IMG/VR virus record: IMGVR_UViG_3300037439_000286 | Reading direction: 5' to 3' (one strand) | Origin: an uncultured virus (IMG/VR IMGVR_UViG_3300037439_000286) | Taxonomy: Duplodnaviria; Heunggongvirae; Uroviricota; Caudoviricetes | Length of the DNA stretch: 20,000 nucleotides | Shown here: positions 1 through 19,424 of the stretch, piece by piece | Layout of the letters: each line of letters opens with the position of its first letter | Position numbering within the stretch: the first letter of the stretch is position 1 | Made by a program: the position numbers and the translations under genes | Notes under the pieces: generated by a model | What the model was told of the DNA's origin: nothing | Seen by the model: the letters and a program-made list of their open reading frames with translations, nothing else | Databases searched by the model: none

Positions 1-2116
1 CCCATGGTCCGTGCAGATTTCGCTCGAACCAGGCACAGGATACATGGTGCGGTGCTCCCGGGATGACTTCCAGCTCGCGATCCAGGCGCTCCAGGAGCTG
101 GTGGACGGCGGGTGCCTGTTCTGCGTCCATCAAGCGAGCGGCCCCGACTACTCCTTCCACGACATGGTCGTCTGCCGGGCGATGGGCCTGGAGCTGCGGT
201 ACGCGCGCCTGTTCGACACGATGTATGCGGCCTATCTGCGGCGAACCGAGCCCCAGGGGTTGAAGGCCCTCAGCTACCGGAAGGCCGGCATGCGGATGAC
301 CGACTACGAGTCCCTTCTCGGCGGGATCGGCCGCGACCGGCAGATCGAGTACCTGGTCGGGGTGATGGGGAGGAAGTGGCCGCGGCCCGATCCGACCATG
401 GTTCGCGACGGCGACGGGGAGTACCGGCTCTACTCGCCGGAAGCCCCGCATCAGGCCGCCAAGCGCATCCTCATGGACGTGTGGAACGGGAAGGTGAACA
501 AGGAGGGAGAGCCGACCGATCCATACAAGCGCTGGAAGAACCTGGATAGGTCGGTGCGCGCGATGGTCGAGGCCGAGGACGGGCGGATGCCGGCTGCCAC
601 TCTCGATGACGTATTGCCGGATGCCGCGACTCACTATGGCTGCAGCGACTCAGACGGGACTCTGCGCGACTATTATGCCCTCGCTCCTGAACTTGAGCGG
701 CACGGCCTCGCTCCGCTCATGGACCATGGGATGTCGGTCATGGGGTTCTTCGAGGAGATGCAGGAGCGCGGGATGCCGGGGTCGTACGCGCGGTTCCTCG
801 CCCTGCGCGAGCGGCTGATTGGAGAACTAGACAGCCTGCAGTGGGCTCTGCGGAACAAGTACTTCGGCGGCCGGCCCTACAACCCCAACTCGCCGATCGA
901 CGTGCCGGTGCTGATGGCGGAGCGGGGCCTGCTTACCGGCCGGGTGAAGAGATCGAGGAAGTCGGGTCGCGTGTCGACCAGCAAGAAGCACATCGGGCAC
1001 CTGAAGTTCGTGGACGAGGCGATGTACGACACGTTCCAGTACCGGGAGAGGCACAAGCTCGTCGGGACGTTCGTCGGGCCGATCATCGAAGGGATGGAAC
1101 GGCGGGGGGCGGGATCGGTTGGCACGGCCGGCACGACCACGGACGATGTATGCCCGGTGGGTGTCGACCGCGATGATGCATATCCGGTACTCCCGGTCCG
1201 CACCAACATGAAAATCACGAGAGTCGCGACCCGTCGGCCCGCGTCCTCTAAGTCCAAGAGCGGCGGCGAGGAGGTCAACCTGCTGAACATCCCCAAGCGG
1301 ACCAAACATGGCAAAGCGGTCCGTGCCTGCTACGTCGCGCCACCCGGACATGTGTTCGTCCGGGCCGACTGGAGCCAGTGCCAGATGCGCATCATGGCGG
1401 ACGAGTGCGGCGACCCGCTATTGATCAAGCTATATCAGGAAAACCGGGACGTGTATGTGGAGACGGCCGCGCGGGCCGAATCAAAGTCCCGGGGTGTGGA
1501 GGTCCCGACGTCCGCGATCACCGACGACACGCGCCAGGCGTTCAAGACGGCCTGCCTCGGGACCATATTCGGGCTCCAGGCGCTGGGCCTGCGCGATCAA
1601 TTGTGGGGCATGGGCGAGCAGTACCGCGCATGGTCAGAGGACGACTGCCAGGGCCTGCTCGACTCGATCCTCGTCACCTATCCAGGGATTCCCAGGTACT
1701 TCGATGCGGTGGCCCGGGAGTTGAGGGGGTCGAGAGGCCAGCCGAACCCGCACGGGGAGATCCGTAGCCGCTGGGGGATGCCGCGCTACCTCCCCGGGAT
1801 ACATTCGCTCGATCGGAAGGTATCGGCCGCGTCGATTCGGGAAGCCGTGAATCACAAGGTCCAGGACGGCGAGTCCGGCATGATGTATAACGTAATCGAA
1901 TGGCTCAGGCCGGTGGTGCGGAGCTGGCAGGATGTGGGGGTGGAGGTCGTGCCGCGGCTCGAAATCTACGACTCGCTCGATTTCACCGTGCCCGAGTGGT
2001 TCGCAGACACCTGGAAGGAGATCCTGCTGGACGCGATGCTCAATCATACGGGGGTCGAGCTGGCCGTGCCGATCAAGGCGGACGTGTCGAGCGCGGTCAA
2101 CTGGGCAGATCTGTAG
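1..2116 (+). CDS. polA: Family A DNA polymerase with 3'-5' exonuclease domain, 5'-truncated at the window edge
   Basis: The frame is open upstream of GTG 11 (CCA TGG TCC). It shows ExoIII-like YGCSD, GRVSTSK, YRERHKL, NLLNIPKRT, motif A ADWSQCQMR, motif B RQAFKTACLGTIFG, NHKVQ, motif C EIYDSL and a C-terminal VPIKAD...NWADL. Confidence 0.95.
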   Translation, partial: PWSVQISLEPGTGYMVRCSRDDFQLAIQALQELVDGGCLFCVHQASGPDYSFHDMVVCRAMGLELRYARLFDTMYAAYLRRTEPQGLKALSYRKAGMRMTDYESLLGGIGRDRQIEYLVGVMGRKWPRPDPTMVRDGDGEYRLYSPEAPHQAAKRILMDVWNGKVNKEGEPTDPYKRWKNLDRSVRAMVEAEDGRMPAATLDDVLPDAATHYGCSDSDGTLRDYYALAPELERHGLAPLMDHGMSVMGFFEEMQERGMPGSYARFLALRERLIGELDSLQWALRNKYFGGRPYNPNSPIDVPVLMAERGLLTGRVKRSRKSGRVSTSKKHIGHLKFVDEAMYDTFQYRERHKLVGTFVGPIIEGMERRGAGSVGTAGTTTDDVCPVGVDRDDAYPVLPVRTNMKITRVATRRPASSKSKSGGEEVNLLNIPKRTKHGKAVRACYVAPPGHVFVRADWSQCQMRIMADECGDPLLIKLYQENRDVYVETAARAESKSRGVEVPTSAITDDTRQAFKTACLGTIFGLQALGLRDQLWGMGEQYRAWSEDDCQGLLDSILVTYPGIPRYFDAVARELRGSRGQPNPHGEIRSRWGMPRYLPGIHSLDRKVSAASIREAVNHKVQDGESGMMYNVIEWLRPVVRSWQDVGVEVVPRLEIYDSLDFTVPEWFADTWKEILLDAMLNHTGVELAVPIKADVSSAVNWADL

Positions 2117-2146
2117 AGATGGAGAAGAGAAGGTAAGGAGACATCG

Positions 2147-2419
2147 ATGGGCGAGATATATTCATCATATTGCGAGTTCCGGTTCGAGAGATACTGGATG
2201 CCAGGACACACGCACTTGCAAGTCAGCTACATCGACCTGTCGAACGTGCCTACCGTCGGCTTGGAGTACGTTCGAGCCCTCATGCACATACATCGCGCGA
2301 TCGATCCGCATCACGGCCTGAGAATGATGTTCGGCAAGTCTCTGTGCCCGGCGCGAGTCATCCTGGTGCCGCTCGGCGGCGGCCTGCTCGCGCTTCTCGC
2401 GGTCGATCGATGGGACTGA
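2147..2419 (+). CDS. Hypothetical protein (90 aa) with a hydrophobic C-terminus
   Basis: AAGGAG RBS lies just upstream of the ATG, and the ORF fills the gap after polA. The 5' part is AT-richer than its flanks. Confidence 0.5.
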   Translation: MGEIYSSYCEFRFERYWMPGHTHLQVSYIDLSNVPTVGLEYVRALMHIHRAIDPHHGLRMMFGKSLCPARVILVPLGGGLLALLAVDRWD

Positions 2420-2443
2420 GCCGCGACGGGCTCCGCAGTCCCA
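2411..2443 (+). terminator. Stem-loop, possible terminator or RNA processing site
   Basis: TGGGACTG (2411-2418) and CAGTCCCA (2436-2443) form a perfect inverted repeat with an inner AGCC/GGCT pair. It overlaps the stop codon at 2417-2419, and the U-tail is weak. Confidence 0.45.
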
Positions 2444-2451
2444 CGATTCAC

Positions 2452-2481
2452 TTGACAGCACGCGCCGCAGCATGAGACAAT
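2452..2481 (+). promoter_or_regulatory. Sigma70-type promoter, probably giving a leaderless mRNA
   Basis: TTGACA (2452-2457), an 18-nt spacer, then an extended -10 TG-a-GACAAT (2473-2481). The ATG at 2488 sits at the expected +1 and has no Shine-Dalgarno. Confidence 0.65.
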
Positions 2482-2487
2482 CCAATC

Positions 2488-3312
2488 ATGGAAGATAAAG
2501 ACGAGCTGACCATCCGCGAGCTGGAAGTAGAGGCCGAGCGGCTCAAGGCCGGCGTCGCGAGCCTGGAGGCCGAGAACCGCCGCCTGCGAGAAGACCGTGA
2601 CGTGACTCTCCGGGTGCTGGGCCAGGCGCGCAATCGATCGCAGCGGATTGCCCGCCTGGAACTCGAAGTCGAGTCTGAGCGACGGGCGCAGGCTGACATC
2701 AGCGAGTCCTGCGGGCGGATGAAGGACAGATACGAGAAGAGGATTGAGGGGCTGCAGGGGTGGAATCGGCAGGCAGCCGATCTTCTCGGTCGGCAGGAGT
2801 CCGAGATCCGCGCGCTCTCGACGCGCCTCCAGGAGGTCGGGGATATCGTCGGTTCGGACGCCTCGATCGGTCGTGAGCTGCGGGCCATCCTCTACTGGCC
2901 GTCGGAAAGCCCGAAGGACGCCCTGCTTCGGATCATCCGCGAGCGAGACGAGTACATGAACGAGCTACATCTTGCCGGCTTCACGGCCGAGCCACGGAAG
3001 ATCGCCCTCCTCGTGCAGGACATCGAGACCTTGCGCCGCGAGAAGCTTCGGCTGGAGCGGGATCGGAACGCCTGGAAGGCCAGCGCCGAGTTCAATGCCC
3101 TGCTCAACGCGGCTCGCGACGACCCTCGTACGGAGAAGCTGCTGGACCTGCTGGACGACGAGAAGCCGCCGTCGAGCCTGGCCGAGCACCTGCTGCGGGG
3201 CACCGGTTTCAGGATGTCCATGCACTATTGGCGACTGATCTCTCGCTCGGCCTGGCGCTGGCTCCGCGACCAGGTGAAGGCCGACGACTCGACCGCCGAG
3301 GCCGGCCGATGA
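2488..3312 (+). CDS. Coiled-coil-rich hypothetical phage protein (274 aa)
   Basis: Long heptad-like E/R/L-rich helices. The stop overlaps the next ATG (ATGA). Confidence 0.8.
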   Translation: MEDKDELTIRELEVEAERLKAGVASLEAENRRLREDRDVTLRVLGQARNRSQRIARLELEVESERRAQADISESCGRMKDRYEKRIEGLQGWNRQAADLLGRQESEIRALSTRLQEVGDIVGSDASIGRELRAILYWPSESPKDALLRIIRERDEYMNELHLAGFTAEPRKIALLVQDIETLRREKLRLERDRNAWKASAEFNALLNAARDDPRTEKLLDLLDDEKPPSSLAEHLLRGTGFRMSMHYWRLISRSAWRWLRDQVKADDSTAEAGR

Positions 3313-3812
3313 TCACCGACCGCACCGGCTCGATCTTCGACTCGCACGCCGACGCCCTGGTCGTGCCGGTCAACTGCGTCGGGGTCGCGGGCAAGGGGCT
3401 GGCGCTGGAGTTCAAGCGGCGATGGCCCGAGTGGTTCCGGGCGTATCGTGCGGCTTGCGAGACAAGGGACCCGGGGCGGCTGATCGCTGGTCGGGTCTTC
3501 GCGTACTTTGTGCCGAGCGGCGGCCCATGGATCATCGCCCTGCCGACCAAGGATCATTGGCGCCGCCCACCCGACCTCGGCCTGATCAATCTCGGGCTAA
3601 ACAGCCTGCGGCGGTGGCTGATCGCGAACCCGCAGGTCGAGACGATCGCGGTGCCGGCGCTCGGGTGCGGGCTCGGCGGGCTCGAATGGACCCGCGTGAA
3701 GCCGCTGATCGAGAATTGGCTTGACCTGGGCTCTCCAGGCTCTGGCGTGAGGGTTCTGCTCTATGAGCCGCAGGAGTCCCCGCAAGATAATCCGCAGGTG
3801 CCTGCCCCATGA
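3309..3812 (+). CDS. Macrodomain (Appr-1''-p processing, DarG/Poa1p-like ADP-ribosylhydrolase)
   Basis: GSIFDSHADALVVPVNCVGVAGKGLALEFK, IIALPTKDHWR and IAVPALGCGLGGLEW. The start is taken as ATG 3309 from the ATGA overlap. Confidence 0.9.
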   Translation: MITDRTGSIFDSHADALVVPVNCVGVAGKGLALEFKRRWPEWFRAYRAACETRDPGRLIAGRVFAYFVPSGGPWIIALPTKDHWRRPPDLGLINLGLNSLRRWLIANPQVETIAVPALGCGLGGLEWTRVKPLIENWLDLGSPGSGVRVLLYEPQESPQDNPQVPAP

Positions 3813-4003
3813 GCATCACCGGCGGCGTGCGTCCGGCCAACCTGCCGAGCGACGACCTGCCGCGGGTGGACAAGGAGAGCGTGCGGGAGATCGGGCGGAT
3901 ACGGTTGCGGTTCACAACCCAAGTGCCCCGCCCCGGGAACCGGGACGAGGCCCCCAGTGTGAGACGCGGCGGGCGAGTGCCGCCGAGCCGAAGGGACGAA
4001 TGA
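3809..4003 (+). CDS. Small basic hypothetical protein (64 aa)
   Basis: ATGA overlaps at both ends. Confidence 0.55.
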   Translation: MSITGGVRPANLPSDDLPRVDKESVREIGRIRLRFTTQVPRPGNRDEAPSVRRGGRVPPSRRDE

Positions 4004-4031
4004 GCGAGATTGGCGAGCGAGAGGAGCATTG

Positions 4032-4508
4032 ATGCCCACGAAGAAGAAGGCCGATCCACCGACCCTGCTCGACGAGGATGGAGTCCCGGACGATGGGACT
4101 CGCGTCCTCCTCCAGATCCTCCAGATCCTCGGGGACGAGGCGGCGCGATTGTCGGCCGAGATCGCGGATCTACAGGCCCAGCAGAAGGCCGCGACCGCCG
4201 AACATGGAGCCGTGGCTGCCGCCGCCGGGATCGCGCGGCTCAAGGCGTCCGACGGATCGTGGTCGGCCGGCATGCAGCCGTGGCGAAACGAGACGATACG
4301 GGCCGAGCGGCTGCTGCGGGACGGGTGGGAGGTTGCGTGTCCGCATTGTGCCGGCGCACTGACCATCACGACCCCGATGCACGTGATCGAGGCGGCGACT
4401 GATAGGCAGGCCGGCGAGACGTGGGTGGTGCGGAGGAAGCCCAAGAAGAAGGAGAAAGGGAAAGAGAAGGGAAAGTCGCCAACCGATGGAGAGGAGAGTG
4501 GATCGTGA
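4032..4508 (+). CDS. Hypothetical protein with a coiled coil, a CPHC motif and a Lys-rich tail
   Basis: GAGGAG RBS at 4021-4026. The stop overlaps the next GTG. Confidence 0.75.
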   Translation: MPTKKKADPPTLLDEDGVPDDGTRVLLQILQILGDEAARLSAEIADLQAQQKAATAEHGAVAAAAGIARLKASDGSWSAGMQPWRNETIRAERLLRDGWEVACPHCAGALTITTPMHVIEAATDRQAGETWVVRRKPKKKEKGKEKGKSPTDGEESGS

Positions 4509-4882
4509 GCAGCGACCGCGTACGAATCAAGGACGGCTGTGCCGGTGCCGGGCAAACCGGCCGTGCACTCGGCCCTCAAATTTTTGAGGGGCAGTGGTGG
4601 ACGCCGGTCCTGTGGGACAAGGGCGGGGACCCGGATTGGCACAAGACATCGGGGCTGGAGGAATCGCCCGCGCCCGGCCTCAAGCCCTGCCCGTTCTGTG
4701 GGGGCAATGATGTTGTGCTCGTGCCGGTCCTGGATGCGCAGGGCGAGGAAGTACCAGACGCCTATGGGGTGTCGTGTCCTGGCTGCCAGTTCGACTTCGC
4801 GATCGGCGACTCTACGGCCGAGGAAATCGCAGCGGCGTGGAACCGGCGGTCCCAGGGAGACGATAGGAAGGAGGGCCGCTGA
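4505..4882 (+). CDS. Lar-family (restriction alleviation) zinc-binding protein with an extra N-terminal domain
   Basis: LKPCPFCGG...VSCPGC...AEEIAAAWNRR signature. GTGA overlap with an upstream GAGGAG. Confidence 0.8.
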   Translation: MSSDRVRIKDGCAGAGQTGRALGPQIFEGQWWTPVLWDKGGDPDWHKTSGLEESPAPGLKPCPFCGGNDVVLVPVLDAQGEEVPDAYGVSCPGCQFDFAIGDSTAEEIAAAWNRRSQGDDRKEGR

Positions 4883-5485
4883 ATGCGCACGCCGTTGGAG
4901 ATCTTCGAGGAAGTGCTGGGCGCCTGGGGCGGCCTTGCTAGAGCCGCCATTGAGATCGGCGGTGCCCCCCGTGAGGCGAGGGCCAGGGCACATCAGGAAT
5001 CGGTCGCCGCTGTCCGGGAGGAGTTCCAGGAGGCGATGGGACCCGGAGGCACTGTACACGGGCACATCGAGACCTTCGATAGGCCATCATTTCTATCGTT
5101 CGATGATGATGCTCCCGCCGAGCTCACGGCGAGCGCTGACGAGGCGTTCCGCGGCGTGACGGACGCCGGCACGACCTACGACTCGATCGAGCCCGCCGGT
5201 TCCGTGGTCAAGCCGCCGCGGGTCGGGCCGGGAGACCACCTGCTACGACCCGCTGCCGACGACGAGCTGGTCTGCGCGGTCTGTGGAAGGCCGCATGTTT
5301 TGCATGGCATCAACTGCCCGATGCTGTCCGTCCCCGAGCAGGCCGAGTTGACGATCGTCAGCCAGGCCGAGAGCCTGCTCCAGGAGAGTCGGCATCGGAT
5401 CGAGCCATTCGATGACGAGGAGTTCCGCCGGCGCCGCGACGAGAGCGCCGAGCGCTACACTCGGCCGGACGGGAGTTCCCGATGA
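4883..5485 (+). CDS. Acidic hypothetical protein (200 aa) with a CxxC...H...C possible zinc motif
   Basis: AAGGAGG RBS, CAVCGRPHVLHGINC motif, and ATGA coupling to the next gene. Confidence 0.75.
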   Translation: MRTPLEIFEEVLGAWGGLARAAIEIGGAPREARARAHQESVAAVREEFQEAMGPGGTVHGHIETFDRPSFLSFDDDAPAELTASADEAFRGVTDAGTTYDSIEPAGSVVKPPRVGPGDHLLRPAADDELVCAVCGRPHVLHGINCPMLSVPEQAELTIVSQAESLLQESRHRIEPFDDEEFRRRRDESAERYTRPDGSSR

Positions 5486-5961
5486 ACGCTGCCCACCTGC
5501 GCGACATGGTAGTCCGCCCGACCCTCCAGCACCTCGGCACCTGGTCCCTGGTCGACGAGCAGCTCGTCATGGGGACCGCGGCCCATGAGAGCGACGGCTT
5601 CCGCTACCTGAAGCAGGCCGGCGGCGGGCCAGCTCTCGGCCTATGGCAGATGGAGCCGGCGACCTACGATGATCTGCACGCCAACTACCTGGCGTACAAG
5701 CGCGACCGGGCCGTCAAGCTGCAAGGTCTGGTCGCCGACTGGCCGGTGGGCGCCGCGGCCCTCCCAACCAACCTGGCGTACGGTGCGGCGCTGTGTCATC
5801 TCCAGTATCTCAGGTACAGAAAGGGGTATGTGCTGCCGATGCCGGGCGACGTGCAGGCAATCGCGGCGGTGTGGAAACAGGTGTGGAATACGCACCGCGG
5901 CAAAGGGACCGTCGGGAAGTTCGTGGACGACTGGCGGCTGTGGATCGGCGACTTGTACTAG
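5482..5961 (+). CDS. Putative endolysin, lysozyme/transglycosylase-like fold
   Basis: VRPTL...LVMGTAAHES...YLKQ..GGPALGLWQMEPAT...WKQVWNT..GKG is a pattern typical of a phage lysozyme-like family. The candidate catalytic Glu is in HES. Confidence 0.8.
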   Translation: MNAAHLRDMVVRPTLQHLGTWSLVDEQLVMGTAAHESDGFRYLKQAGGGPALGLWQMEPATYDDLHANYLAYKRDRAVKLQGLVADWPVGAAALPTNLAYGAALCHLQYLRYRKGYVLPMPGDVQAIAAVWKQVWNTHRGKGTVGKFVDDWRLWIGDLY

Positions 5962-5979
5962 ATCGGAAGGAGCAACGGC

Positions 5980-6906
5980 ATGGCGAATCTCCGCGGCAGC
6001 ATCGGACCCAACGGCTACATCCCGCCGGCCAACGTCACCGTGACTTGGCGCAGACCCGGTGCGCCCGACATCACGAAGAAGCTACGGCCTTCTGTCCCCT
6101 TCACCGGCTCCGGCAACGCGAGTGTCTACAGCCGTTATGGAGAGGACGACCCGGAGTGTGTTGGGCGGCAGATCACCGCCATCGGCTCGGAGCAGCTCGG
6201 CGGGAGGGCCTACCTGATTCTGAGGGAGTTGTACGCGCAGGCCGGCGTTACGGCACCGCTGGCCGCTATAAGCCAGCCCGTGTGGGATTTCGCCGTCGCC
6301 GAGTGCGGGAACCGCCCGGCCGACTGGTGCGATTACAAGCGCTTCACCGGCAAGCCCGATCCGATCTGCGGGGAGAAGTGCCCTCCCTGCACCGGCGGCT
6401 CAGGAGGACAGGTCGAGCCTGGGCAGGTAGTTGAGACGCCGACGAATCTGCGGCTCGAAGGCAGGTTGCTGTCATGGGAATGGCCGGGCTCGGGTGTGGT
6501 CACGTTCAACGCCTACCTCAAGGAGGGTGAGGCGTTCGTGGCCCTCGGAACGTCCAAGAGTTCGCCGATGGTCTTGAGCCTGCGCCCGTCCAACGGAACG
6601 CAAATCCTCCTCTACGCAGGTCAGCGCAAGAAGCGGTACTCGGAAGCCCATCTCGTGGTCGGGAGCGCCGAGCCGGGGCCGATCGATCCGCCACCCCCGC
6701 CTCCCCCGCCACCCCCGCCGCCTGTCTCGCCGCTCGCCGAGACCCTGGCCCTTCACACCGCGGCCGAGATCTGGGAGGCTCTAAGCGAGGCGCAGCGAGA
6801 GGAGATCCGGGCCAAGTTCCCGCCGACCGCCGCGGTGCCGGAAGGGACCGTTGAATCCCTACGACGGTTGGAGGAATGGCTGCTGTCCCTGGGGACCGAG
6901 CCGTGA
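5980..6906 (+). CDS. Hypothetical protein (308 aa) with a Cys cluster, an FN3-like domain and a poly-Pro linker
   Basis: AAGGAG RBS. TPTNLRLEGRLLSWEW...FNAY resembles FN3 strands, and there is a 12-Pro run at about 6688-6723. Confidence 0.75.
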   Translation: MANLRGSIGPNGYIPPANVTVTWRRPGAPDITKKLRPSVPFTGSGNASVYSRYGEDDPECVGRQITAIGSEQLGGRAYLILRELYAQAGVTAPLAAISQPVWDFAVAECGNRPADWCDYKRFTGKPDPICGEKCPPCTGGSGGQVEPGQVVETPTNLRLEGRLLSWEWPGSGVVTFNAYLKEGEAFVALGTSKSSPMVLSLRPSNGTQILLYAGQRKKRYSEAHLVVGSAEPGPIDPPPPPPPPPPPPVSPLAETLALHTAAEIWEALSEAQREEIRAKFPPTAAVPEGTVESLRRLEEWLLSLGTEP

Positions 6907-7253
6907 GCACCGGAATCCCCATCACCGACCCGGAAGAGCTGGCGTGGTGCGACTTTGCGCAGCGCCAGGAGAAGACGTGGCGCGCGATCGAGCTGACCGA
7001 GCAGGGGCTTTCGATCGCCTCTTTCAGGGCCGGGGCGGGCTGGGAGCGCGCCGCCTGCCTGGAGATCGTGCGGGCGGCGGGGTGCGCGTGCTGGGTCCTG
7101 GACCGCGTCGGCCTGTTCGAGGGGACGTTCAGCGGAAACAAGATCCGAACGCGTCCCGGTGGGACCGTGGAGGATCTGCGCTCCATCGAAGTCCATGACC
7201 CCCGCTGCCCCCACGCCCTTGCAAAGCGCATCGAAGCCCGAGAGAGGGGCTGA
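6903..7253 (+). CDS. Hypothetical phage protein with scattered Cys/His residues
   Basis: GTGA overlap with the upstream stop. Contains CAC and HDPRCPH motifs. Confidence 0.65.
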   Translation: MSTGIPITDPEELAWCDFAQRQEKTWRAIELTEQGLSIASFRAGAGWERAACLEIVRAAGCACWVLDRVGLFEGTFSGNKIRTRPGGTVEDLRSIEVHDPRCPHALAKRIEARERG

Positions 7254-7256
7254 GCC

Positions 7257-7469
7257 ATGGACCTGAGACAGCACGCAGAGTTCCTCGTTGAGCAGCTTCT
7301 CCGGGAGGAGCGCGCCCGCATCCGACGGGAGCTTGAGGAAGCCATAGAGGCCGCGTCCTCCGTGGTCCAGCTCTCGGAAGCAGGCGAGGACTTGGGGGAG
7401 CCCGTCGAGATGGTCGAGAAGGAAGACATGCTGGCGGCGCTGGACCGCATCATCCCGGAGGAGCCCTGA
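7257..7469 (+). CDS. Small acidic hypothetical protein (70 aa), last gene of the + arm
   Basis: GAGGGG upstream, directly after the previous stop, with helical composition. Confidence 0.7.
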   Translation: MDLRQHAEFLVEQLLREERARIRRELEEAIEAASSVVQLSEAGEDLGEPVEMVEKEDMLAALDRIIPEEP

Positions 7470-7502
7470 GCCGCCCCGGGGTAGAGATCGACCGCCGGCC
7501 TT

Positions 7503-8021
7503 CTACAGCCCGCCGCCTGGCCAGCGGCCGCCCTTCTTCTTGCTCGTCGCCTCTCGCGCTTCACGAGCCGGCGGCGCCTGGGGAACCTGGGCCTCCTTCG
7601 CCACCTGCGGCTCCCGCGGATGCTCCTGCGGCGGATGCTCCTGGGCCGGCACCGGCACCTCCTGCGGCGACACTTCCAGCCCTTCCCGCTTCAGCCACTC
7701 CTTCTCGTCGACCGCGGCCCGCTCCGCATCATGCCGCCGCTCGACAGCCGCGTCCCTGCTAGCCTGCGTTCCGGTCGTTTCGGCCTCCGCCTGGGCCGCG
7801 TCCTGGGCCGCCTGGGCCTCTCGCGCCTCCCGAGCCTCCCGCTCCGCCTTCTCTGCCCGCTCGGCCTGCGCCACTCGCGCCGTCTCAGCCGCCTCCACCT
7901 CCTTGGCCTCGCGCTGTGCATAGGACGCCGGGTCGTTCGGCAGCGGCGGGTCCCGCAGTACTGGAACGGGTCGGCGCGTGGGATGGGTATCGGGGTGGGT
8001 ACCGGTCTTGGGCTTGTCCAT
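7503..8021 (-). CDS. Ala/Glu/Arg-rich hypothetical protein (172 aa), last gene of the - arm
   Basis: Strong AAGGAGG RBS, a charged helix and a Pro/Gln-rich tail. Confidence 0.75.
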   Translation of the reverse strand: MDKPKTGTHPDTHPTRRPVPVLRDPPLPNDPASYAQREAKEVEAAETARVAQAERAEKAEREAREAREAQAAQDAAQAEAETTGTQASRDAAVERRHDAERAAVDEKEWLKREGLEVSPQEVPVPAQEHPPQEHPREPQVAKEAQVPQAPPAREAREATSKKKGGRWPGGGL

Positions 8022-8136
8022 TGGAATGCCTCCTTGGGCGATGAAGCGATGGGGGTTGGGTGGTCAACCGCTCACCACTCAAGGCAGTAGCACGCCGCGT
8101 GCCATGTGCCGACCGTCCAGTCCTGACGACCCATCC

Positions 8137-8463
8137 TCACCGCGGGATCACGGGCTTGACGACCTCGACAGCCGGGGTCTCAGCGGCGGACTTCGTCTCG
8201 GCCGCCGTCGTCGCCGTCCGCAGGACCTGGGCCGCTGCCGTGGCCGCCGCGATTGCCTGAGCCGCCGCGGCGGCCGCTACCGACGCCGCCTCCTTGTGTG
8301 CCGGGCTGTCCGGCGAGGCCGCGTTCTTCTGCATCCAGAACTGGATCGCGGCGCCGATGACCAGGCCCGCCAACGCCGGCTGGCTCTCGCGGAATAGGTA
8401 ACAGAAGCTCAGCATCATGAACATCGCTGCCAGGTCGATGATACGTTCCGTGGTCCTGGTCAT
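8137..8463 (-). CDS. Holin-like two-TM membrane protein with an Ala-rich tail
   Basis: From ATG 8463 there are two hydrophobic segments, IIDLAAMFMMLSFCYLF and ALAGLVIGAAIQFW. Confidence 0.6.
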   Translation of the reverse strand: MTRTTERIIDLAAMFMMLSFCYLFRESQPALAGLVIGAAIQFWMQKNAASPDSPAHKEAASVAAAAAAQAIAAATAAAQVLRTATTAAETKSAAETPAVEVVKPVIPR

Positions 8464-8479
8464 GGCGGGCCGGCCTTGT

Positions 8480-8671
8480 CTACCGCAGACCGACCGGCCC
8501 ACTCCAGATGCCGAAGAAGCTCAGCAGCCATAGCACGACGGCGAGCACGATCACGAACATGGCGATCTCCCGGAAGGGCGACTGCATCGGGATCTTGGTG
8601 AACAGCAGCCAGCAGACGAACCCGAGGACGACCAGGACGAGCACGACTGTGATGAGGGACTCGATGCCCAT
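8480..8671 (-). CDS. Small two-TM membrane protein (63 aa), resembling the Thivi_2564 family
   Basis: GAAGGAG RBS before ATG 8671. Sequence LITVVLVLVVLGFVCWLL..IPM..PF....VIVLAVVLWLL. Confidence 0.75.
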   Translation of the reverse strand: MGIESLITVVLVLVVLGFVCWLLFTKIPMQSPFREIAMFVIVLAVVLWLLSFFGIWSGPVGLR

Positions 8672-8684
8672 GTTCTTCTCCTTC

Positions 8685-8906
8685 TTAACCGGGGAAGGCG
8701 ATCTCGCGGATGGAGGCCGCCAGCTCAGCCGACAGGAAGACGATTCCCTTCTCGACCATGGCCTTCGCGGCCGAGTCCGCCTCTTCCTTGCGGACCCCGA
8801 GGTCGAGGAGAATCCCCACCCTGGCCCGGTGCCCATCATCCTGGCCGGCGGCGGTTGTCGGGACGCAGCAGATCTGGGCGGCGCAGTTGAGTCTTGGGTC
8901 TGGCAT
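8685..8906 (-). CDS. Hypothetical protein (73 aa)
   Basis: TAATG overlap with the upstream gene and an AAGGAG RBS. Confidence 0.7.
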   Translation of the reverse strand: MPDPRLNCAAQICCVPTTAAGQDDGHRARVGILLDLGVRKEEADSAAKAMVEKGIVFLSAELAASIREIAFPG

Positions 8907-9331
8907 TACATCACTCCTTTTCTAATGAGGTCGCGTGTGGCGTCCTCTTGCCATTTCTTGAGCTTCATGATCTCGATTTCGAGGTCGGAGCGGTTTGTCC
9001 CGACTTTCTCTTCGATTGCTTTGATCCGCAGTTCCAGCACCTCGCGGTTCGGGAGCTGCCCCTGGATAGACACCAGCTTCTCCTGCAGGACGTCCAGCCG
9101 GTTGCCGAGAGTCACCCAGGCGGCGGTGACTGTCACGATGATCGTGAGAACCTGGATGAGGAGACGCGGGTCGAGCCAGGCGGACGACGGGCGCGGGGAC
9201 TGAGGCGGCTCGTCCCATCGACGACGGAACGTGGAGGTGTCGTCCAGGTCCCGATCGCGGTCCCGGTCCCGAGACCCGCGCCCCGGGTCCATCGCGATCG
9301 GCGTCGGCACGGCCGGCGGATCGGCGGTCAC
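8906..9331 (-). CDS. Single-TM plus coiled-coil membrane protein, possibly lysis-related
   Basis: TM segment LLIQVLTIIVTVTAAWVTLG followed by a heptad helix. The GTG start overlaps the stop of a mini-ORF. Confidence 0.7.
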   Translation of the reverse strand: MTADPPAVPTPIAMDPGRGSRDRDRDRDLDDTSTFRRRWDEPPQSPRPSSAWLDPRLLIQVLTIIVTVTAAWVTLGNRLDVLQEKLVSIQGQLPNREVLELRIKAIEEKVGTNRSDLEIEIMKLKKWQEDATRDLIRKGVM

Positions 9332-9440
9332 AGTGGGCAGCTCCGTACATGGGCATACATGAACATTGTCTGTATCTCCGCTTCCTCCTGACGCGCACCC
9401 GATATGTTACACGACAACAGGGTACTTACAGTATCTGCCC

Positions 9441-12400
9441 CTACTCGTCCTTCTCCTTCGCCCGCTCTTCCTTCTTCCCCTCGACCCACTCGCTATTCAG
9501 CTCCTCATAATGCTCAACCACCTGATCGACATCCCCCGCGAGCAGCGCATCCCGTTCCCACACTCCGACGCCCGCGATGGCCATCGCCTCGTCGATCTGC
9601 TCCTCGCTCAGTCCCCACACGCGGGCCGCGCGCACGTTCTCGACCATGTCAGTGGCCGATTCGCGAACCGCGGCCACAAAGAGCCGCCTATCTCTGTCCG
9701 ACGCATCCTTGCCGAGCTTGATGGGCTTCTTCTCGATCTCTCGGCCTTCTGACACATCCCGCTTGTAGCCAAACGACAGGCGCTTCAACTGTTTACCGAT
9801 GTCGATCGTGACGAGCCGCGGCCCAAACACCGCGATCACCTCGTCGGCGGTGTTGCGCTTCTCGTCGGCAATGCGAGCCGCGGTCTTGAGGGTGCCGGGG
9901 ACGAGCGTCTTGCCGACGTGGCCGGCCTTCGCGATCTCGCGGTCCGCAACCGGCCACCGCTCGTTGTACACCGGGTAGCCTTCCGGCGTCTGGTTCCGGA
10001 AGTAGGCCGACACGACCGCCCCGGTGAACAAGTCCTCGCCGAATGGCCGCTTGAACTCCTCGATCGCGCCCTGCACATCCCCCTGGAGGAGCTGGATGAA
10101 GGGCTGCTTGATGACATTGAAGAAGTCGCCGAACGACACGTCCACGAACCGGATCTTGCCGTCGTCGCTCGGCAGGAAAATGACCGTCGAGTTGCGGTTC
10201 CAGGGCGCCATGAACCGGCGGGCCGCATCATCATCGTCCTCGTCGAGCGAGAGGAGGTGGCGGGCCGCGAGAGCCGCGATCGTGGGAATCGAGAGCGCGG
10301 CCACGAACCCGACGGCCTTCTTTGCGCCGAGCTTGCGGACTTCTGGATTGTCGCTCCGGATCTCGCGCACCGCGATGAGCCCGATGTTCTTGGACGTGCG
10401 CGCCACTTCCTCGAAAAACGACACGAACGGCCCGATCACCGGCGCCTGGCCCAGCACCTTCATCGCCTCGGGCACACGCGAGTAGTTCTGCATCGTGTCG
10501 CGCAGGATCTCCGCCACATGCTCCTCGGCCTCGGCCCGGGTCACGCCGAGCGCCTTCTCGTACTGCGGCACGAGCGCATCGAACGTGTACATCTTGGCGA
10601 AGTTGTCGGGCGCGTTGTAGAAGTTCTGGGTGAAGCGCACGCCGCGGCCGAACGCCGACCCGGCTCCCGGCTCCTCGCCCTTGAACATCTGGGCGTTTCT
10701 CTCGGTCCGCTTCAAGTCCCCGAGATCCGTCCCCTGGTCGAACAGGTTCAGCTCCAGCATCCGCTCGATCAGCCGCACGCGTCCCGCTTCGGTTGTTCCC
10801 AGGAGCTTGCCGTAGGAAACCGCGCCCGCACGCTTGAACCGGTCGTAGTTGATCGGGTTGACTCCGTTGGCAAGGACCGAGAGGAAGTTCGAGAGGAAGT
10901 TACGGTCTGCCGCCTGGATCGAGCCCGCGGTCACGGCCGCCTTCGCACCGAACGACAGATGAAACCACCACCTGATCCATCCAGGGTAGTTGCGCGAATC
11001 ACTGAACACCGACTCCAGCTCCTCCAGGACTTCTGGAGTCGTGTACAACCCCGACATCGGCTTGGTGCGCGGCTTGCCCCGCAGATCCACGACCCGGTCG
11101 AGCCCGGGTTCAGGCCCAGCGTCCTCGGCCGACTCGACTTTCCGCGCAAACCGGTCCGGGTCGATCGGCTCAGTGAACGTCTGCTCATCGACCGACCCCG
11201 CCTGCTCGACCTCGGCCGAAGTGCGAAGAGCGCCGGCGGCCCGGCCTTCCTTCTCGACACGCCGGAGGAACCGCTCGTTCTCAAGCAACGCCCCCATCTC
11301 CAGGGCCGTGGTCGCGAAGTTCGAGCCGGCGTGCCGGGTCTCGCCACGAAGCAACCGTTCGAGCGCATCTCGATCGCCGCGCTTCTTCATGACCGACAGG
11401 TTCTTCGCGCCTTCGGGAACGCCGCCCGGCATGACGGGCCGCTGCACCTTCTTCACGTACCGGTCGAGCATGCCCCAGATCTGGGAGTCCGGCTTGGCGG
11501 GATGTGCCCGGACCGCGCCATCATGCACGCCCAAGAACAACGGGCCATGAAGGTTGTAGTCCGCTAGGAACTGATTGAGGAGGAGCGGATCGCGCAGGGC
11601 ACGAGTCAAGTCGGCGACGGCCTGTTCCCGCGTTCCCTTGGCCTGCTTCAGATCGGCATATGGAACCTCGACCGTCTCAGGCTTGCCGTTCGCGTCTGCC
11701 GCGACGACGTATGCTTTGTCACCCACGACCTGCACGACATTCCCGACTCGGGAGCCGAACTTCACCCGATCGCCCTGGCGCGGCGGATGCGTGGCCGGCG
11801 GCCTCGTGAGCTTCATGTCCTTGACGACAGACCGCGCGCGGTCTTCCGCCACCGCCGCATCCCACTTCTTCCGCGTCAGCTCGAAGGCCCGGTTCCAGAG
11901 CGGCTCGTGGCGGACTCGCTTTGCCCACTTGTCGTTGCGGGCCGACTCATACTGCCGGTGGACATACAGCCCATGGCTCCGTTCCAGCTCGCGGGCAGTC
12001 CCATCATCCAGTGCCCCGAGCCGCCGGAGTTCCCGAGTCAGGCCGTCGGTGTGCGCGCGAAGCTGGCGGATGATCGGCAGGAAGCTTTGTGCGCCCGGAT
12101 CAGGAGCCTCGGCTCGGACGGCGAATCCTGGTGCGGTGCTGCGCTGAATGTTGGACGCCCTCGGCAGTGTAGCCCCAGCCAGCGGTTCTGGCATCGTACG
12201 ACTCGCCTGCTCGCGGACTGTCTCCTCCTGCAGCCCGCGGCGGGCCGCGATCCGTTTGATTTGTGCATCATCCAGCAGCTCACCACCGGTCCGCACGTTC
12301 ATCCCGCGGTACGCATCATCCAGATACCGGGTGAGCTGCTGGTAGGACAGCGGGCCGCGGTACTGGCGGATCTGCCGGTTGAGCTGTCGCGACAGGAGAT

Positions 12401-15095
12401 CGACCTGGTAGGTGTGCTTCGCGATCTTGCCGTCCCGGGCGAGGACTGCATCATCCAGGAACTTGGGCCGGCGCTTGCCGGGGCTCGCGAAGTTCTTGAC
12501 GAGGAAGCGCTTGATTGCGCGACCGGGCAGGGCGGGCAGGGTCAGGGCACCGCGCTCGCCGACCGAGGAGATGGCGCGGGACGGGAGAGCTACGCCCGGC
12601 CGTGGCTTGTTTTCTGGGGTGGCGCCTCCTGTCGCAACCACTCCCTGTACCGACCTTGCACTCTCGGCGGCAGCGGCTCCAGGAATCCCATCCACAGGCC
12701 GCGCATCAGGTACCGCCGGAAGTTCGACTGGCGCACTGCGCTCCGGGCCTCGTGCCTGCTCGGGTGATGCTTCAAGCGTGCTATCATTGGTCTCCTCCTC
12801 GGCACGTACTGTAGCACGAGACGCCGGCCGTCGGTCCCATCCCTCGCTTGCCTTCCATAGCCGCCGCGCCTCCCCATATCCGACACCCAGCGCTCTCTGG
12901 ATCTCGGGGAGCTTGGGCCGGCGGCCGAGCCGCTGTGCGAGCGCCACGACTCGGGTCTCGGCGGACTGCGGCTCGGCCGGCTCGACAGCCCGCTCGGTTG
13001 GAGCGGCGGGCTCAGCCGGCGACGATGACCGGTCCAGAGCCACGGCATCCGGAGAAAACAACGCGACTACGTTCTGTGGGGGGCTGTCGGACCGAGAGTT
13101 GGGCGCGTCGATCACATTGCGGAATCGCACCCCTGGGCGTCCCTCGGCCAACGCCTGCTCAATCCCTCGCGGGTATAGCGCATCCTCCACATGGTGACGC
13201 CCCCCGGCATCAATCTCCAGAAGCCGCCCTGGCTCTCGCACCGACCCGGCGAAGACCTTCCGTGGGTTGCGTCCCGGCACAGGCGGAGTGTCCGCGTACT
13301 CTGCAGCTCGATCGGAGTCTTCGGTAAACCATCCGACCTTTGCCCGGAAAGGCCCGAATCCGGAGTCAACAAACGCCTCCTCCGGGAACTCACCACCGGG
13401 CTCAAATTCTCTTCCACTCGTTCCGCGGAAAACACGCAACGGTCGACTCTCAGCCGGCACTACCTCCAACTCCTCGCTCGTCCTCACGCGCGTCGGCGGC
13501 ACCTGCGGCCCGACGGCCGGTGGCCCGGCATGCGTTCCCTTGGCCCGCAGCCACACGATCCGCTCGACTGCCCTCTCGGTCGCCTCGTCGGGAGGGTTGT
13601 CCAGGATGGCGCGGAGTTGATCGTCCGGCAGGTCTCGGACCGCGTCCATCTTCTCCTGGACCTGCCGTCGCATGGCCAGGTTGGATCGGCGGTCCTGGGC
13701 CGGCGGTTCCTCGGGCGATGGGCCGGGCTGCTGTAACTCAACAGGAGCGGCCGTCACAGGTTCGGCGGGCTCGATGGGCACGACCGGAGAATAAGCAGGC
13801 TCAACCGCCGGGCCTGCCGATGCCCGTGGAGCCACGGACGCGCCACCACCAGCCAATCCGAGCACGAACCCGCTGATCCCGGCCTCCCCGACGCGCCTGG
13901 CAACGTCCTCAAGCGACAGGTCCTCGGCCGCGGCGACCTGGGCCACGTTAGCCAGGATCTGGTTCAGCTCCTGCAGGCTCTCGGTTCCGCCTTCCGCCAT
14001 CCCCTGTTCGAGCACGAGCCGCACGACAGACTTGGCCGCGGCATCGTCGACTCCGGGCACGACCCCGCCCTTCAGAGTCCGCAGGAGCTTGCCGGCCGGC
14101 AGGTACTCCAGGACCATGTTGGTTGCGCCGACCCACCCGGCAACCCGTCGCGCCTCCTCCTCGGTGGCGCCCGAGTCCTTGGCCTCGTTGTAGGCCGCGC
14201 CTGCCTCCTGGGTGAAGGCCACGGCTCCGCCGCCTACCGGCCCGCCGACCGCCGCGCCGCCGATCGTCGCAACCAGGGTCGGCAGGTTTTCGAGTCCAGA
14301 GATGGCGAGCGTTTTGAGTGGATCGGTCTGTAGGCCGGACCAGAAGTCCTGGGCGTACTCGGGCCGCGGCATGGATTCCTGCGAGCGAGTGGCAGCCGAC
14401 TGCATCTGCTCGCCGGCCTGCTGGAGTTGCGAGCCCGTGGCGCCTGCCGCCAACCCGACCGCGGACATCGGCGGCGCGCCCACCGAGTAGAGATCCCGGG
14501 CTCGTGCCATCGCCTCCTGCTGGGCGAGAGTCATGCCGGCCATCGACTCGTCCGGCTCGGGCTGAAGCGCCCGCCCAACCATCTCCCCGAGCCCGCCGAC
14601 GGCCGACCCGACGTTGCTGACTCCGCGCTGCCACGCCTCGACCGCCGCCTCGGGGAAGGTGGGCTCGCCGTACAGAGCCGCGGTGTCCGCCTGCTCGGTC
14701 GGCAGTGGCGCGCCGCCCATCTGGCCGAGGGCCTTCTGCCGCAGACCTTCGGCGCGCTCCTCGCGATTCAGGTGGGCGGCGACAGGTGGAGGGACTTCGA
14801 CCGCGGGCCGATGCACCGCGAGCGGCCGTGGAGGCTGCGGAGGCGGCGGAGGCGGGATGCGTGCGAGTGCCGACGGCCGGGCCGGGGAACTCGGCGGCGG
14901 AACAAACGGTAGGAGCTGCGGCTTGCGGCCGGGCGTCGGTTCGGTCGGCGGCGGCTCGTAGGTTGAGAGGAACCAGTCGATGGCCGAGGCCGTGGATGAG
15001 AGAGCCGATCGCGGCTGGACCGCGGGCTCGGCAGGCGTACCTGCCGGCTCATACCTCCGCAGGAACTCGTCGAGAGCCGCCCGGTCGAACGCCAT
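9441..15095 (-). CDS. Large polyvalent internal virion/DNA-ejection protein (1884 aa) with ART-like, HTH and KOW-like modules
   Basis: Its size and position after the pilot-like genes fit this role. It has Gly/Ala-rich hydrophobic helices with the motifs EAGAAYNEA and EGGTESLQE, embedded domains, and a helical C-terminal region. Confidence 0.8.
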   Translation of the reverse strand: MAFDRAALDEFLRRYEPAGTPAEPAVQPRSALSSTASAIDWFLSTYEPPPTEPTPGRKPQLLPFVPPPSSPARPSALARIPPPPPPQPPRPLAVHRPAVEVPPPVAAHLNREERAEGLRQKALGQMGGAPLPTEQADTAALYGEPTFPEAAVEAWQRGVSNVGSAVGGLGEMVGRALQPEPDESMAGMTLAQQEAMARARDLYSVGAPPMSAVGLAAGATGSQLQQAGEQMQSAATRSQESMPRPEYAQDFWSGLQTDPLKTLAISGLENLPTLVATIGGAAVGGPVGGGAVAFTQEAGAAYNEAKDSGATEEEARRVAGWVGATNMVLEYLPAGKLLRTLKGGVVPGVDDAAAKSVVRLVLEQGMAEGGTESLQELNQILANVAQVAAAEDLSLEDVARRVGEAGISGFVLGLAGGGASVAPRASAGPAVEPAYSPVVPIEPAEPVTAAPVELQQPGPSPEEPPAQDRRSNLAMRRQVQEKMDAVRDLPDDQLRAILDNPPDEATERAVERIVWLRAKGTHAGPPAVGPQVPPTRVRTSEELEVVPAESRPLRVFRGTSGREFEPGGEFPEEAFVDSGFGPFRAKVGWFTEDSDRAAEYADTPPVPGRNPRKVFAGSVREPGRLLEIDAGGRHHVEDALYPRGIEQALAEGRPGVRFRNVIDAPNSRSDSPPQNVVALFSPDAVALDRSSSPAEPAAPTERAVEPAEPQSAETRVVALAQRLGRRPKLPEIQRALGVGYGEARRLWKASEGWDRRPASRATVRAEEETNDSTLEASPEQARGPERSAPVELPAVPDARPVDGIPGAAAAESARSVQGVVATGGATPENKPRPGVALPSRAISSVGERGALTLPALPGRAIKRFLVKNFASPGKRRPKFLDDAVLARDGKIAKHTYQVDLLSRQLNRQIRQYRGPLSYQQLTRYLDDAYRGMNVRTGGELLDDAQIKRIAARRGLQEETVREQASRTMPEPLAGATLPRASNIQRSTAPGFAVRAEAPDPGAQSFLPIIRQLRAHTDGLTRELRRLGALDDGTARELERSHGLYVHRQYESARNDKWAKRVRHEPLWNRAFELTRKKWDAAVAEDRARSVVKDMKLTRPPATHPPRQGDRVKFGSRVGNVVQVVGDKAYVVAADANGKPETVEVPYADLKQAKGTREQAVADLTRALRDPLLLNQFLADYNLHGPLFLGVHDGAVRAHPAKPDSQIWGMLDRYVKKVQRPVMPGGVPEGAKNLSVMKKRGDRDALERLLRGETRHAGSNFATTALEMGALLENERFLRRVEKEGRAAGALRTSAEVEQAGSVDEQTFTEPIDPDRFARKVESAEDAGPEPGLDRVVDLRGKPRTKPMSGLYTTPEVLEELESVFSDSRNYPGWIRWWFHLSFGAKAAVTAGSIQAADRNFLSNFLSVLANGVNPINYDRFKRAGAVSYGKLLGTTEAGRVRLIERMLELNLFDQGTDLGDLKRTERNAQMFKGEEPGAGSAFGRGVRFTQNFYNAPDNFAKMYTFDALVPQYEKALGVTRAEAEEHVAEILRDTMQNYSRVPEAMKVLGQAPVIGPFVSFFEEVARTSKNIGLIAVREIRSDNPEVRKLGAKKAVGFVAALSIPTIAALAARHLLSLDEDDDDAARRFMAPWNRNSTVIFLPSDDGKIRFVDVSFGDFFNVIKQPFIQLLQGDVQGAIEEFKRPFGEDLFTGAVVSAYFRNQTPEGYPVYNERWPVADREIAKAGHVGKTLVPGTLKTAARIADEKRNTADEVIAVFGPRLVTIDIGKQLKRLSFGYKRDVSEGREIEKKPIKLGKDASDRDRRLFVAAVRESATDMVENVRAARVWGLSEEQIDEAMAIAGVGVWERDALLAGDVDQVVEHYEELNSEWVEGKKEERAKEKDE

Positions 15096-19196: not shown

Positions 19197-19424
19197 TTAT
19201 TCGCCGGCCTTCTTCTCGTTCCGCGCGATCGCGGCATTGGCCCACATCACCGCCTCTTCGAGCTTGGTCAGCGCGAGAGACCGTTCACGAGACTCGGGGC
19301 AGTGCTCCAGGTAGCTCGCGGCGAGGCCCTTCGCCAGCTCACGCAGCTCTTCGTAGCGCGCGGCCTGCGTGCCGAACGGCGGGTGGTAGGTGAAGTTGTT
19401 GTCGATCGGGTACTGGGTTGCCAT
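19197..19424 (-). CDS. Acb2/Tad1-hairpin-like small protein, candidate immune-signal sponge
   Basis: GAAGGAG RBS. NNFTYHPP...YEELR...CPESRERSLALTKLEEAVMWANAAIARN resembles the Tad1 C-terminal helix pattern (SRE..AL T..EEA.MW). Confidence 0.75.
   Translation of the reverse strand: MATQYPIDNNFTYHPPFGTQAARYEELRELAKGLAASYLEHCPESRERSLALTKLEEAVMWANAAIARNEKKAGE

Follow-up and report, generated by a model that had tools for sequence, protein, structure and literature searches.

At the 5′ end of a 20,000-nucleotide stretch of DNA from an uncultured virus of the Caudoviricetes (IMG/VR record IMGVR_UViG_3300037439_000286; the whole stretch is referred to here as the window) lies a gene for a family A DNA polymerase (PolA) whose nucleotide pocket departs from that of the Klenow fragment of Escherichia coli DNA polymerase I at the sugar steric gate, in the O-helix and in motif C. 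Do these departures reflect sequence error, decay or a working alternative, and which of them belong together? A first-pass annotation, made from the letters alone, had proposed a re-tuned site and had treated the changes to Gln, Phe and Tyr as one combination. The gene product is a family A polymerase, fused to a uracil-DNA glycosylase (UDG)-like domain (a UDG-PolA), with a real and conserved variant of the pocket. What is new, as far as the literature searched shows, is a recurrent coupling of Gln at the gate (Klenow position 710) with Glu at Klenow position 852, which reaches well beyond the window.

The altered pocket and its conservation

A single open frame of 704 amino acids, at 2-2116 on the plus strand, runs off the 5′ end of the window. 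The full protein, P0002, has 921 amino acids, of which the last 704 are encoded here. When the DNA and its translation were read, every motif and coordinate of the first-pass annotation proved correct, but it had not taken into account that the window begins inside the gene, with residues 1-217 of P0002 lying upstream. Residues are numbered below as in P0002; positions 709, 710, 761, 762, 766, 849, 852, 881 and 883 are those of Klenow. The features of the gene and its pocket are as follows.

2..2116, + strand: 3′ part (704 of 921 codons) of the UDG-like / 3′-5′ exonuclease / family A DNA polymerase gene; from translation, profile matches and the structure model.
1217..1294, + strand: TGR-motif region, TRVATRRPASS, with an insert of 7-8 residues (SKSKSGGEEV) before NLLNIP; minor-groove Arg (IPKR, R650) kept; from alignment.
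1229..1246, + strand: TRRPAS; read from the DNA.
1367..1390, + strand: motif A, DWSQCQMR, with catalytic D673, C677 (Klenow I709) and Q678 (Klenow E710, the sugar steric gate); from DNA and alignment.
1532..1573, + strand: motif B / O-helix, RQAFKTACLGTIFG, with R728 and K732 kept and C735 (Klenow N761), L736 (F762) and F740 (Y766); from DNA and alignment.
1838..1885, + strand: motif 6 / helix Q, REAVNHKVQDGESGMM, with R830, N834 and Q838 kept and E841 (Klenow A852); from alignment, with a helix at 822-861 in the model.
1961..1978, + strand: motif C, EIYDSL, with Y873 (Klenow H881), catalytic D874 (D882) and S875 (E883); from DNA and alignment.

The gate codon is CAG at 1382-1384, the F740 codon lies at 1568-1570 and the E841 codon at 1871-1873, within the VQDGESG segment (1859-1879). 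An HMMER alignment to Taq polymerase gave the changes relative to Klenow as E710Q, I709C, Y706W, N761C, F762L, Y766F, G850D, A852E, H881Y and E883S, with D705, D882, R754, K758, R668, N845 and Q849 kept. D673, D874, R728 and K732 align to Taq D610, D785, R659 and K663, and the paired segments (Taq/window) read dysqiElr/DWSQCQMR, R..aKt.nFgvlYG/R..FKT.CLGTIFG, vQGtAAd/VQDGESG and vHDEl/IYDSL. The six substitutions called earlier by eye (E710Q, Y766F, F762L, N761C, H881Y and E883S) were recovered unchanged, and the retention of D705, D882, R754 and K758 was confirmed against both Taq and Klenow. The hydrogen-bonded pair of E710 and Tyr766 is described as universally conserved in family A (PMC3715850; published work is cited here from parts of each paper). 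The window polymerase departs from this pair (Q678, F740) while retaining the fold.

Pfam model PF00476 (DNA_pol_A) matches the polymerase domain with E 9e-43 and 145.8-147.1 bits, against a curated cut-off of 34.3. PHROG 17 ‘DNA polymerase’ also matches it, and Taq and Klenow chains in the PDB match at E of about 1e-24 (HMMER; Taq large fragment, E 2.7e-24). The AlphaFold2 model, a check that the first-pass annotation had called for, is confident and Klenow-like, with a predicted local distance difference test score (pLDDT) of 90.3, a predicted template modelling score (pTM) of 0.89 and disorder limited to residues 589-609. A Foldseek search gave Taq, Klenow and Bst as best matches (template modelling score TMt 0.79-0.86; E 6e-27 to Taq), and by model and search together the predicted structure has the Klenow-fragment fold. 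The large fragments of the three enzymes (PDB 1KFS, 3PO4, 4EZ9 and others) thus share with P0002 the exonuclease and polymerase fold as well as the catalytic Asp pair, the O-helix Arg and Lys and the minor-groove Arg, Asn and Gln, at 16-20% identity. They differ from it in lacking the Gln gate, Phe766, Glu852, Cys709 and Cys761, Leu762, Tyr881 and Ser883, the insert after the TGR motif and the disordered insert at 589-609.

An error of sequencing or assembly has to be considered for DNA which was found in one sequencing run alone, that of a sediment metagenome which is probably the source sample, and for which no RNA run was listed. However, P0002 is on record identically, over all 921 residues, from two sources, and its frame in the window is open with normal codon-position GC contents of 0.64/0.45/0.85. 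P0003, a separate record from a different source, is the only close relative of P0002 among 5.8 billion clustered proteins, being 70-72% identical, and has the same motifs. This effectively refutes an artefact, for which the remaining probability is negligible. Absence of the substitutions from close relatives had been named earlier as a sign of drift or error. P0003 is identical to P0002 at 11 of 13 study positions, the differing ones being D839 and S842. Over five motif windows the two proteins are identical at 117 of 136 positions (86%), compared with 67.5% outside these windows (Fisher p 6e-6), and motif B with its flanks is identical at 34 of 35. The post-TGR insert and the Pro of TRRPAS are limited in the alignment to these two proteins. 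The identity of the motifs in P0003 and the stronger conservation of the motif regions argue against decay as well as against sequencing error, and on these comparisons the view that the changes are coordinated and conserved is supported. The earlier view that the site is not a decayed one is thus supported, both by the motif windows and by the recurrence of E710Q and Y766F in independent lineages, described below.

The Gln gate and Glu852 among relatives

Core columns were read from MAFFT alignments. The family set consisted of 206 aligned relatives, made up of the best 150 of an exhaustive HMMER search together with word-search matches of at least 600 amino acids. The catalytic Asp pair is invariant in this set, the O-helix Lys is present in 205/206 and the Arg in 196/206. 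The gate position is E in 195, G in 5, Q in 4 and D in 2. At the Y766 position are found Y (145), T (36), N (11), F (9) and A (5); at F762, F (182), Y (13) and L (11); at H881, H (187) and Y (15); and at E883, E (158), S (23), D (18) and A (6). A change of TGR to TRR is also frequent in the UDG-PolA family. Leu762, Tyr881, Ser883 and TRR must be regarded as ordinary family variation because each is common and is found with a normal Glu gate. The Gln/Phe/Tyr combination therefore did not hold together as one unit. The possibility, raised earlier, that the substitutions are common in ordinary PolA enzymes is correct for these four changes; the Gln gate is present in 4/206.

The four Gln-gate members are P0002, P0003, P0067 and P0148, and all four have both Phe766 and Glu852. 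Elsewhere in the set Glu852 occurs once in 202 proteins. The first-pass annotation had noted the VQDGESG change without singling out its Glu, at the A852 position, which is the true companion of the Gln gate. The same association was seen in a pool of 352 aligned PolA cores, where Glu852 is present in 70/70 Gln-gate cores and Phe766 in 69/70, the exception being L029 (Gln, Tyr, Glu). Among 274 Glu-gate cores, Glu852 was found in 1 and Phe766 in 18. Both His-gate cores (2/2) have Glu852.

A search with P0067 gave 1522 proteins at E<=1e-10, of which the best 120 were taken. Among the matches listed, 64 of 117 alignable members of this clade read DYSQLQLR / NFGLLFG / QGxEAD, while their Glu-gate sisters read DYSQIELR / NFGLLYG / QGxGAD. 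The Gln gate is thus not rare and fills a large metagenomic PolA clade. When all core columns of the P0067 clade were scanned (67 Gln versus 104 Glu), only 677, 678 and 841 discriminated between the two states. At these columns P0002 and P0003 have C/Q/E and their nearest Glu-gate relative, P0077, has I/E/A; P0148 has M/Q/E and P0115 and P0144 have I/E/A. The clade shares with P0002 the module of Gln710, Phe766, Glu852 and a residue other than Ile at 709, and is often fused to PrimPol-DUF3987, DUF3854 or DNA methyltransferases. Unlike P0002 it is without a UDG domain, keeps Phe762, His881 and Glu883 and is found in integrase-bearing elements. It is about 25% identical to the window polymerase region and its module has arisen independently. 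No description of this clade was found in the literature searched.

When the study columns were masked before tree building, every Gln lineage stood beside Glu-gate sisters, and parsimony requires 5 state changes. These sequences indicate at least four separate origins of the Gln gate: in P0002 with P0003, in P0148, in L029 and in the large P0067 clade. A second metagenome scan, seeded with the Gln-gate alignment, returned mostly Glu-gate relatives, through the AKAVNFGL pattern, and the Gln gate was present in 3 of its 80 kept loci (L006, L007 and L029). Relatives of P0148 and P0067 were absent from the viral-contig scans, and tblastn against cultured phages gave only matches below 60% identity.

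Several carriers of these pockets have architectures of their own. P0283 and P0341, fused to DUF3854 and placed inside the P0067 clade, combine a His gate with Leu at Q849 and Glu852, a third pocket state. P0148, an independent Gln-gate UDG-PolA, has a LAGLIDADG intein within its ExoIII motif (residues about 532-828). The Gln-gate PolA of L007 lies at 1735-9629 of that contig with a helix-turn-helix (HTH) regulator, a tyrosine integrase, an excisionase-like HTH protein and a 712-amino-acid PrimPol protein, and a second integrase is present at the contig end; the module looks like a self-replicating integrative element. P0067 and P0225 each join, in one chain, an exonuclease, PolA, PF18723 (‘5-hmdU DNA kinase, helical domain’) and a DNA methyltransferase. 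A kinase P-loop domain was not detected in either chain.

Other departures were seen in the 206-member set. Cys677 (position 709; 1379-1381) and Cys735 (position 761; 1553-1555) are both kept in P0003 and are nearly unique, with Cys in 2/206 and 3/206 relatives respectively, so a Cys pair in the nucleotide pocket is possible on sequence grounds. The Thr or Asn that replaces the ‘universal’ Tyr766 in the UDG-PolA relatives counted above (GFGVITG, for example P0008-P0012 and P0015-P0021) would be another undescribed departure in this family. P0069, P0071, P0073, P0075 and P0076, one of them labelled Kofleriaceae, are Pol I-like proteins with 5′-3′ exonuclease domains. They have a Gly gate, Ala at Y766, Val at A852, Glu at Q849 and Leu, Val or His at H881, and such heavily altered pockets may be inactive or repurposed.

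A proposed relocation of the gate carboxylate and the alternatives

Two of the substitutions, E710Q and Y766F, have been made at the same positions in laboratory Klenow enzymes. Wild-type Klenow has a Kd for deoxynucleoside triphosphate (dNTP) of 17 uM and a kpol of 40/s, and Y766F is near to wild type at 41 uM and 50/s (Hohlbein 2013, PMC3715850). With E710Q as its only change the enzyme is slow and a mutator, having a Kd of 320 uM and a kpol of 0.23/s (PMC3715850, Supplementary Table S2), a loss in kpol/Kd, from these published values, of about 3000-fold. The laboratory E710Q enzyme is without Glu852, whereas the natural enzymes have this extra Glu, conserved. Given that E710Q alone is so impaired, the natural state is read as a compensated relocation of a carboxylate. 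Ternary complexes of KlenTaq contain a water that is shared by E615, N750 and Q754 (Klenow E710, N845 and Q849) and touches the incoming base at its minor-groove edge (PMC6125688). This places helix Q opposite the gate residue, and on that helix position 852 follows Q849 by one turn (i+3).

The gate carboxylate would thus have been moved from residue 710, now Gln, to residue 852 (E841 here). Y766F removes the hydroxyl that normally holds E710, the neighbouring I709 becoming Cys, and Q678 may be held by E841 on a fixed palm helix in place of Tyr766 on the mobile O-helix. The pocket would keep a single negative charge and the sugar gate its shape, so that selection of dNTP over ribonucleoside triphosphate (rNTP) would be retained. 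The checkpoint before chemistry, at which the incoming nucleotide is read through its sugar and the minor-groove water, would be re-tuned. L762, C761, Y881, S883 and the TRRPAS insert are lineage-specific additions drawn from variation common in the family. Such a relocation accounts both for the severe defect of the single laboratory mutant and for the conservation of the natural Gln-gate state.

The residues, their conservation and their covariation are seen directly in the sequences, and we infer from them that Q678 contacts E841, that the enzyme is still active and that its selectivity or fidelity may have changed. The retention of D673, D874, R728, K732, R650, N834 and Q838 is consistent with activity. 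We put at roughly 0.6 the probability that P0002 is the replicative polymerase of an uncultured high-GC phage, most likely active, with an internally compensated alternative nucleotide pocket. The functional consequence could be a changed fidelity checkpoint, a changed sensitivity to analogues, or nothing. It is a tentative and rather unlikely extension that this is a second natural sugar-gate design, evolved at least four times, with altered acceptance or accuracy, which here, together with the E883 and H881Y changes, would give a selectivity (towards modified dNTPs or nucleotide analogues, or in its error spectrum) unlike that of any characterised PolA.

Several points weigh against the relocation. 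The proposed Q678-E841 contact is drawn from covariation and helix geometry, and activity of the enzymes bearing the module is likewise a deduction. Phe766 is not obligatory, because L029 has Gln and Glu852 with Tyr766. E883S and H881Y in P0002 might lower activity beyond what the module compensates. The 352 cores are what remained of 406 after a motif and length filter dropped 54 in which the regular expression missed the core. The pooled sample is non-random, having been gathered around P0002 and P0067 and with one scan seeded with a DYSQLQLR pattern, so its frequencies are not population estimates.

A relaxed or decaying polymerase site, of low activity or inactive and kept as a scaffold, UDG or exonuclease while another polymerase replicates the genome, would account for the carboxylates missing from the active site: of the three that it normally has besides the catalytic Asp pair, two are gone (E710Q and E883S). 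The crippled Klenow E710Q enzyme would fit such a site, and a second polymerase is possible outside the 20-kb window. However, the motif regions are the most conserved parts of P0002 and P0003, D673, D874, R728 and K732 are invariant or nearly so in the 206 relatives, and E883 is Ser, Asp or Ala in 47/206 of them. Furthermore, at least 64 related polymerases from metagenomes have this module as a fixed feature, and some of these are fused to primase-helicase domains as all-in-one replicases. Decay is thus quite improbable.

Relaxed sugar selection, with incorporation of ribonucleotides or of other 2′-modified nucleotides, is suggested by the alteration of both the steric gate and its partner Tyr. 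In motif C the catalytic Asp is followed by Ser, which also resembles single-subunit RNA polymerases. Gln is isosteric with Glu, though, no RNA-polymerase family was matched in the profile scans, and Leu or Phe at 762 would still pack on the sugar. Klenow E710Q binds A-rUTP no better than wild type does (Kd1 126 versus 210 uM, K2 0.056 versus 0.083; PMC3715850, Table 1), which fits the caution expressed in the first-pass annotation that a Gln gate does not imply use of rNTP. This explanation is very improbable.

The pocket could also be adapted to a non-canonical dNTP pool, such as 5-hydroxymethyl-dUTP (5hm-dUTP), the case in phages whose genomes carry modified thymine, or a minor-groove-modified purine such as 2-aminoadenine. 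The arrangement of UDG-like domain, exonuclease and PolA in one chain is that of SPO1 gp31 and N4 gp39 (cluster #17; Czernecki 2023, PMC10201439) and of the YerA41 and phiLo enzymes (Missoury 2026, PMC13697223), and UDG-PolA with conserved UDG residues is linked to the T-modified phages SPO1, SP-10, SP-15 and YerA41 (PMC10201439, PMC13697223). P0002 keeps the UDG-A Glu (E20, in VLGE) and the UDG-B His (H143, in FHPA), as reported for SPO1-like and SP15-like enzymes (PMC13697223), and glycosylase activity is a possible reading of these residues; Phe stands in P0002 where phiLo has Asn just before the UDG-B His (LNHP). With 921 amino acids it is, judged by length without alignment, too short for the large SP15-like inserts (YerA41, 1306 amino acids). 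Leu at position B3 and Phe at B4 are shared with polymerases for 2-aminoadenine (DpoZ, clusters #18/#19), Phe at B4 being called unique to both clusters and Leu at B3 occurring in phiVC8 DpoZ (PMC10201439, Discussion). The PF18723 domain of the Gln-gate proteins P0067 and P0225 and the water-mediated contact of E710 with the minor groove of the incoming base (PMC6125688) point the same way.

On the other side, no nucleotide-modification family was found among the window ORFs (open reading frames) scanned with Pfam, PHROGs and NCBIfam, covering 20 of about 76 kb. A C5 substituent lies on the major-groove side of the base, at a distance from residue 710. SPO1, although a hydroxymethyluracil (hmU) phage, keeps the Glu gate (DYSQLELR) and Tyr766. 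The Glu gate is also kept in N4 gp39 (DFASLEDR), and local HMMER alignments of P0002 scored 45 bits to SPO1 and 26 bits to N4. Efficient incorporation of 5hm-dUTP is reported for the polymerases of YerA41 and phiLo (PMC13697223). The Gln-gate polymerase of L007 lies in an integrase/HTH/PrimPol element in which no modification genes were detected, and the PF18723 match is to the helical domain alone, beside a methyltransferase. Nothing in the contexts examined tied the module to modified nucleotides, and this explanation is unlikely. Assignment of P0002 as a DpoZ is not supported: the DpoZ model NF038380 scores 36.4 bits against a cut-off of 500, no purZ, datZ or mazZ was found among the window ORFs (again 20 of about 76 kb), and DpoZ, unlike P0002, is without a UDG domain.

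The proposed carboxylate relocation bears directly on existing models. Current accounts of how Pol I discriminates between sugars, and of its fidelity checkpoint at fingers closing, are built around the textbook residues E710 and Y766, and a natural and repeatedly evolved state which replaces both and adds a compensating Glu on helix Q offers a direct test of these models. The gate position (A2) is among the conserved positions of all 19 PolA clusters, with no exception reported and with the catalytic residues strictly conserved, and no Gln gate is mentioned in the portions of that survey used here (PMC10201439). Our literature searches, judged at the level of search results, brought up no published description of a natural Gln gate. 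The signature of a Gln gate with QxxE sorts metagenomic PolAs. The variant marks a UDG-PolA lineage of interest for phage replication chemistry and could be a new scaffold for polymerase engineering.

Remaining domains and neighbouring genes

The UDG-like domain and the ExoI motif lie in residues 1-217, upstream of the window. The family-4 UDG-like domain PF03167 matches P0002 at residues 7-146 with E 4e-14; TIGR00758 gave E 2e-13, under its cut-off. The exonuclease residues are intact, namely D213 and E215 (DTE; read from P0002), D271 of ExoII and Y429 and D433 of ExoIII. The remaining features of the gene within the window are as follows.

128..163, + strand: ExoII region, HQASGPDYSFHD (P0002 260-271), Asp kept, with a 6-residue insert common to many family members; from alignment.
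635..649, + strand: ExoIII motif, Y429-x3-D433, both residues nearly invariant in the family; from alignment.
1115..1177, + strand: low-complexity insert (P0002 589-609), predicted disordered (pLDDT <50) and largely absent from P0003.

The GC content of the window is 67.4%. Megablast of the window against phages gave no match, and the best tblastn identity of its polymerase to any cultured phage is 24%. Genes on the plus strand extend to about 8.2 kb and are followed by a converging block on the minus strand. Within this block an ORF of 1884 amino acids (9441-15095, - strand) has a local match to PHROG 22602 ‘virion structural protein’ (E 5e-18), and ORFs of 518, 352 and 490 amino acids after it on the same strand have no family match. 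The contig is taken to be a phage or phage-like because of this gene layout and the virion structural match.

Two neighbouring genes resemble counter-defence functions. At 3228-3812 (+ strand) a 194-amino-acid macro-domain protein matches NF048014 (antitoxin DarG, DNA ADP-ribosyl glycohydrolase; E 7e-47, macro part only) and PHROG 335, and is probably a phage counter-defence against DNA ADP-ribosylation of the DarT type. At 19197-19424 (- strand) a 75-amino-acid protein has an Acb2/Tad1 hairpin domain (PF24729, E 9e-21), the fold of the signal sponges that act against Thoeris and the cyclic-oligonucleotide-based antiphage signalling system (CBASS).

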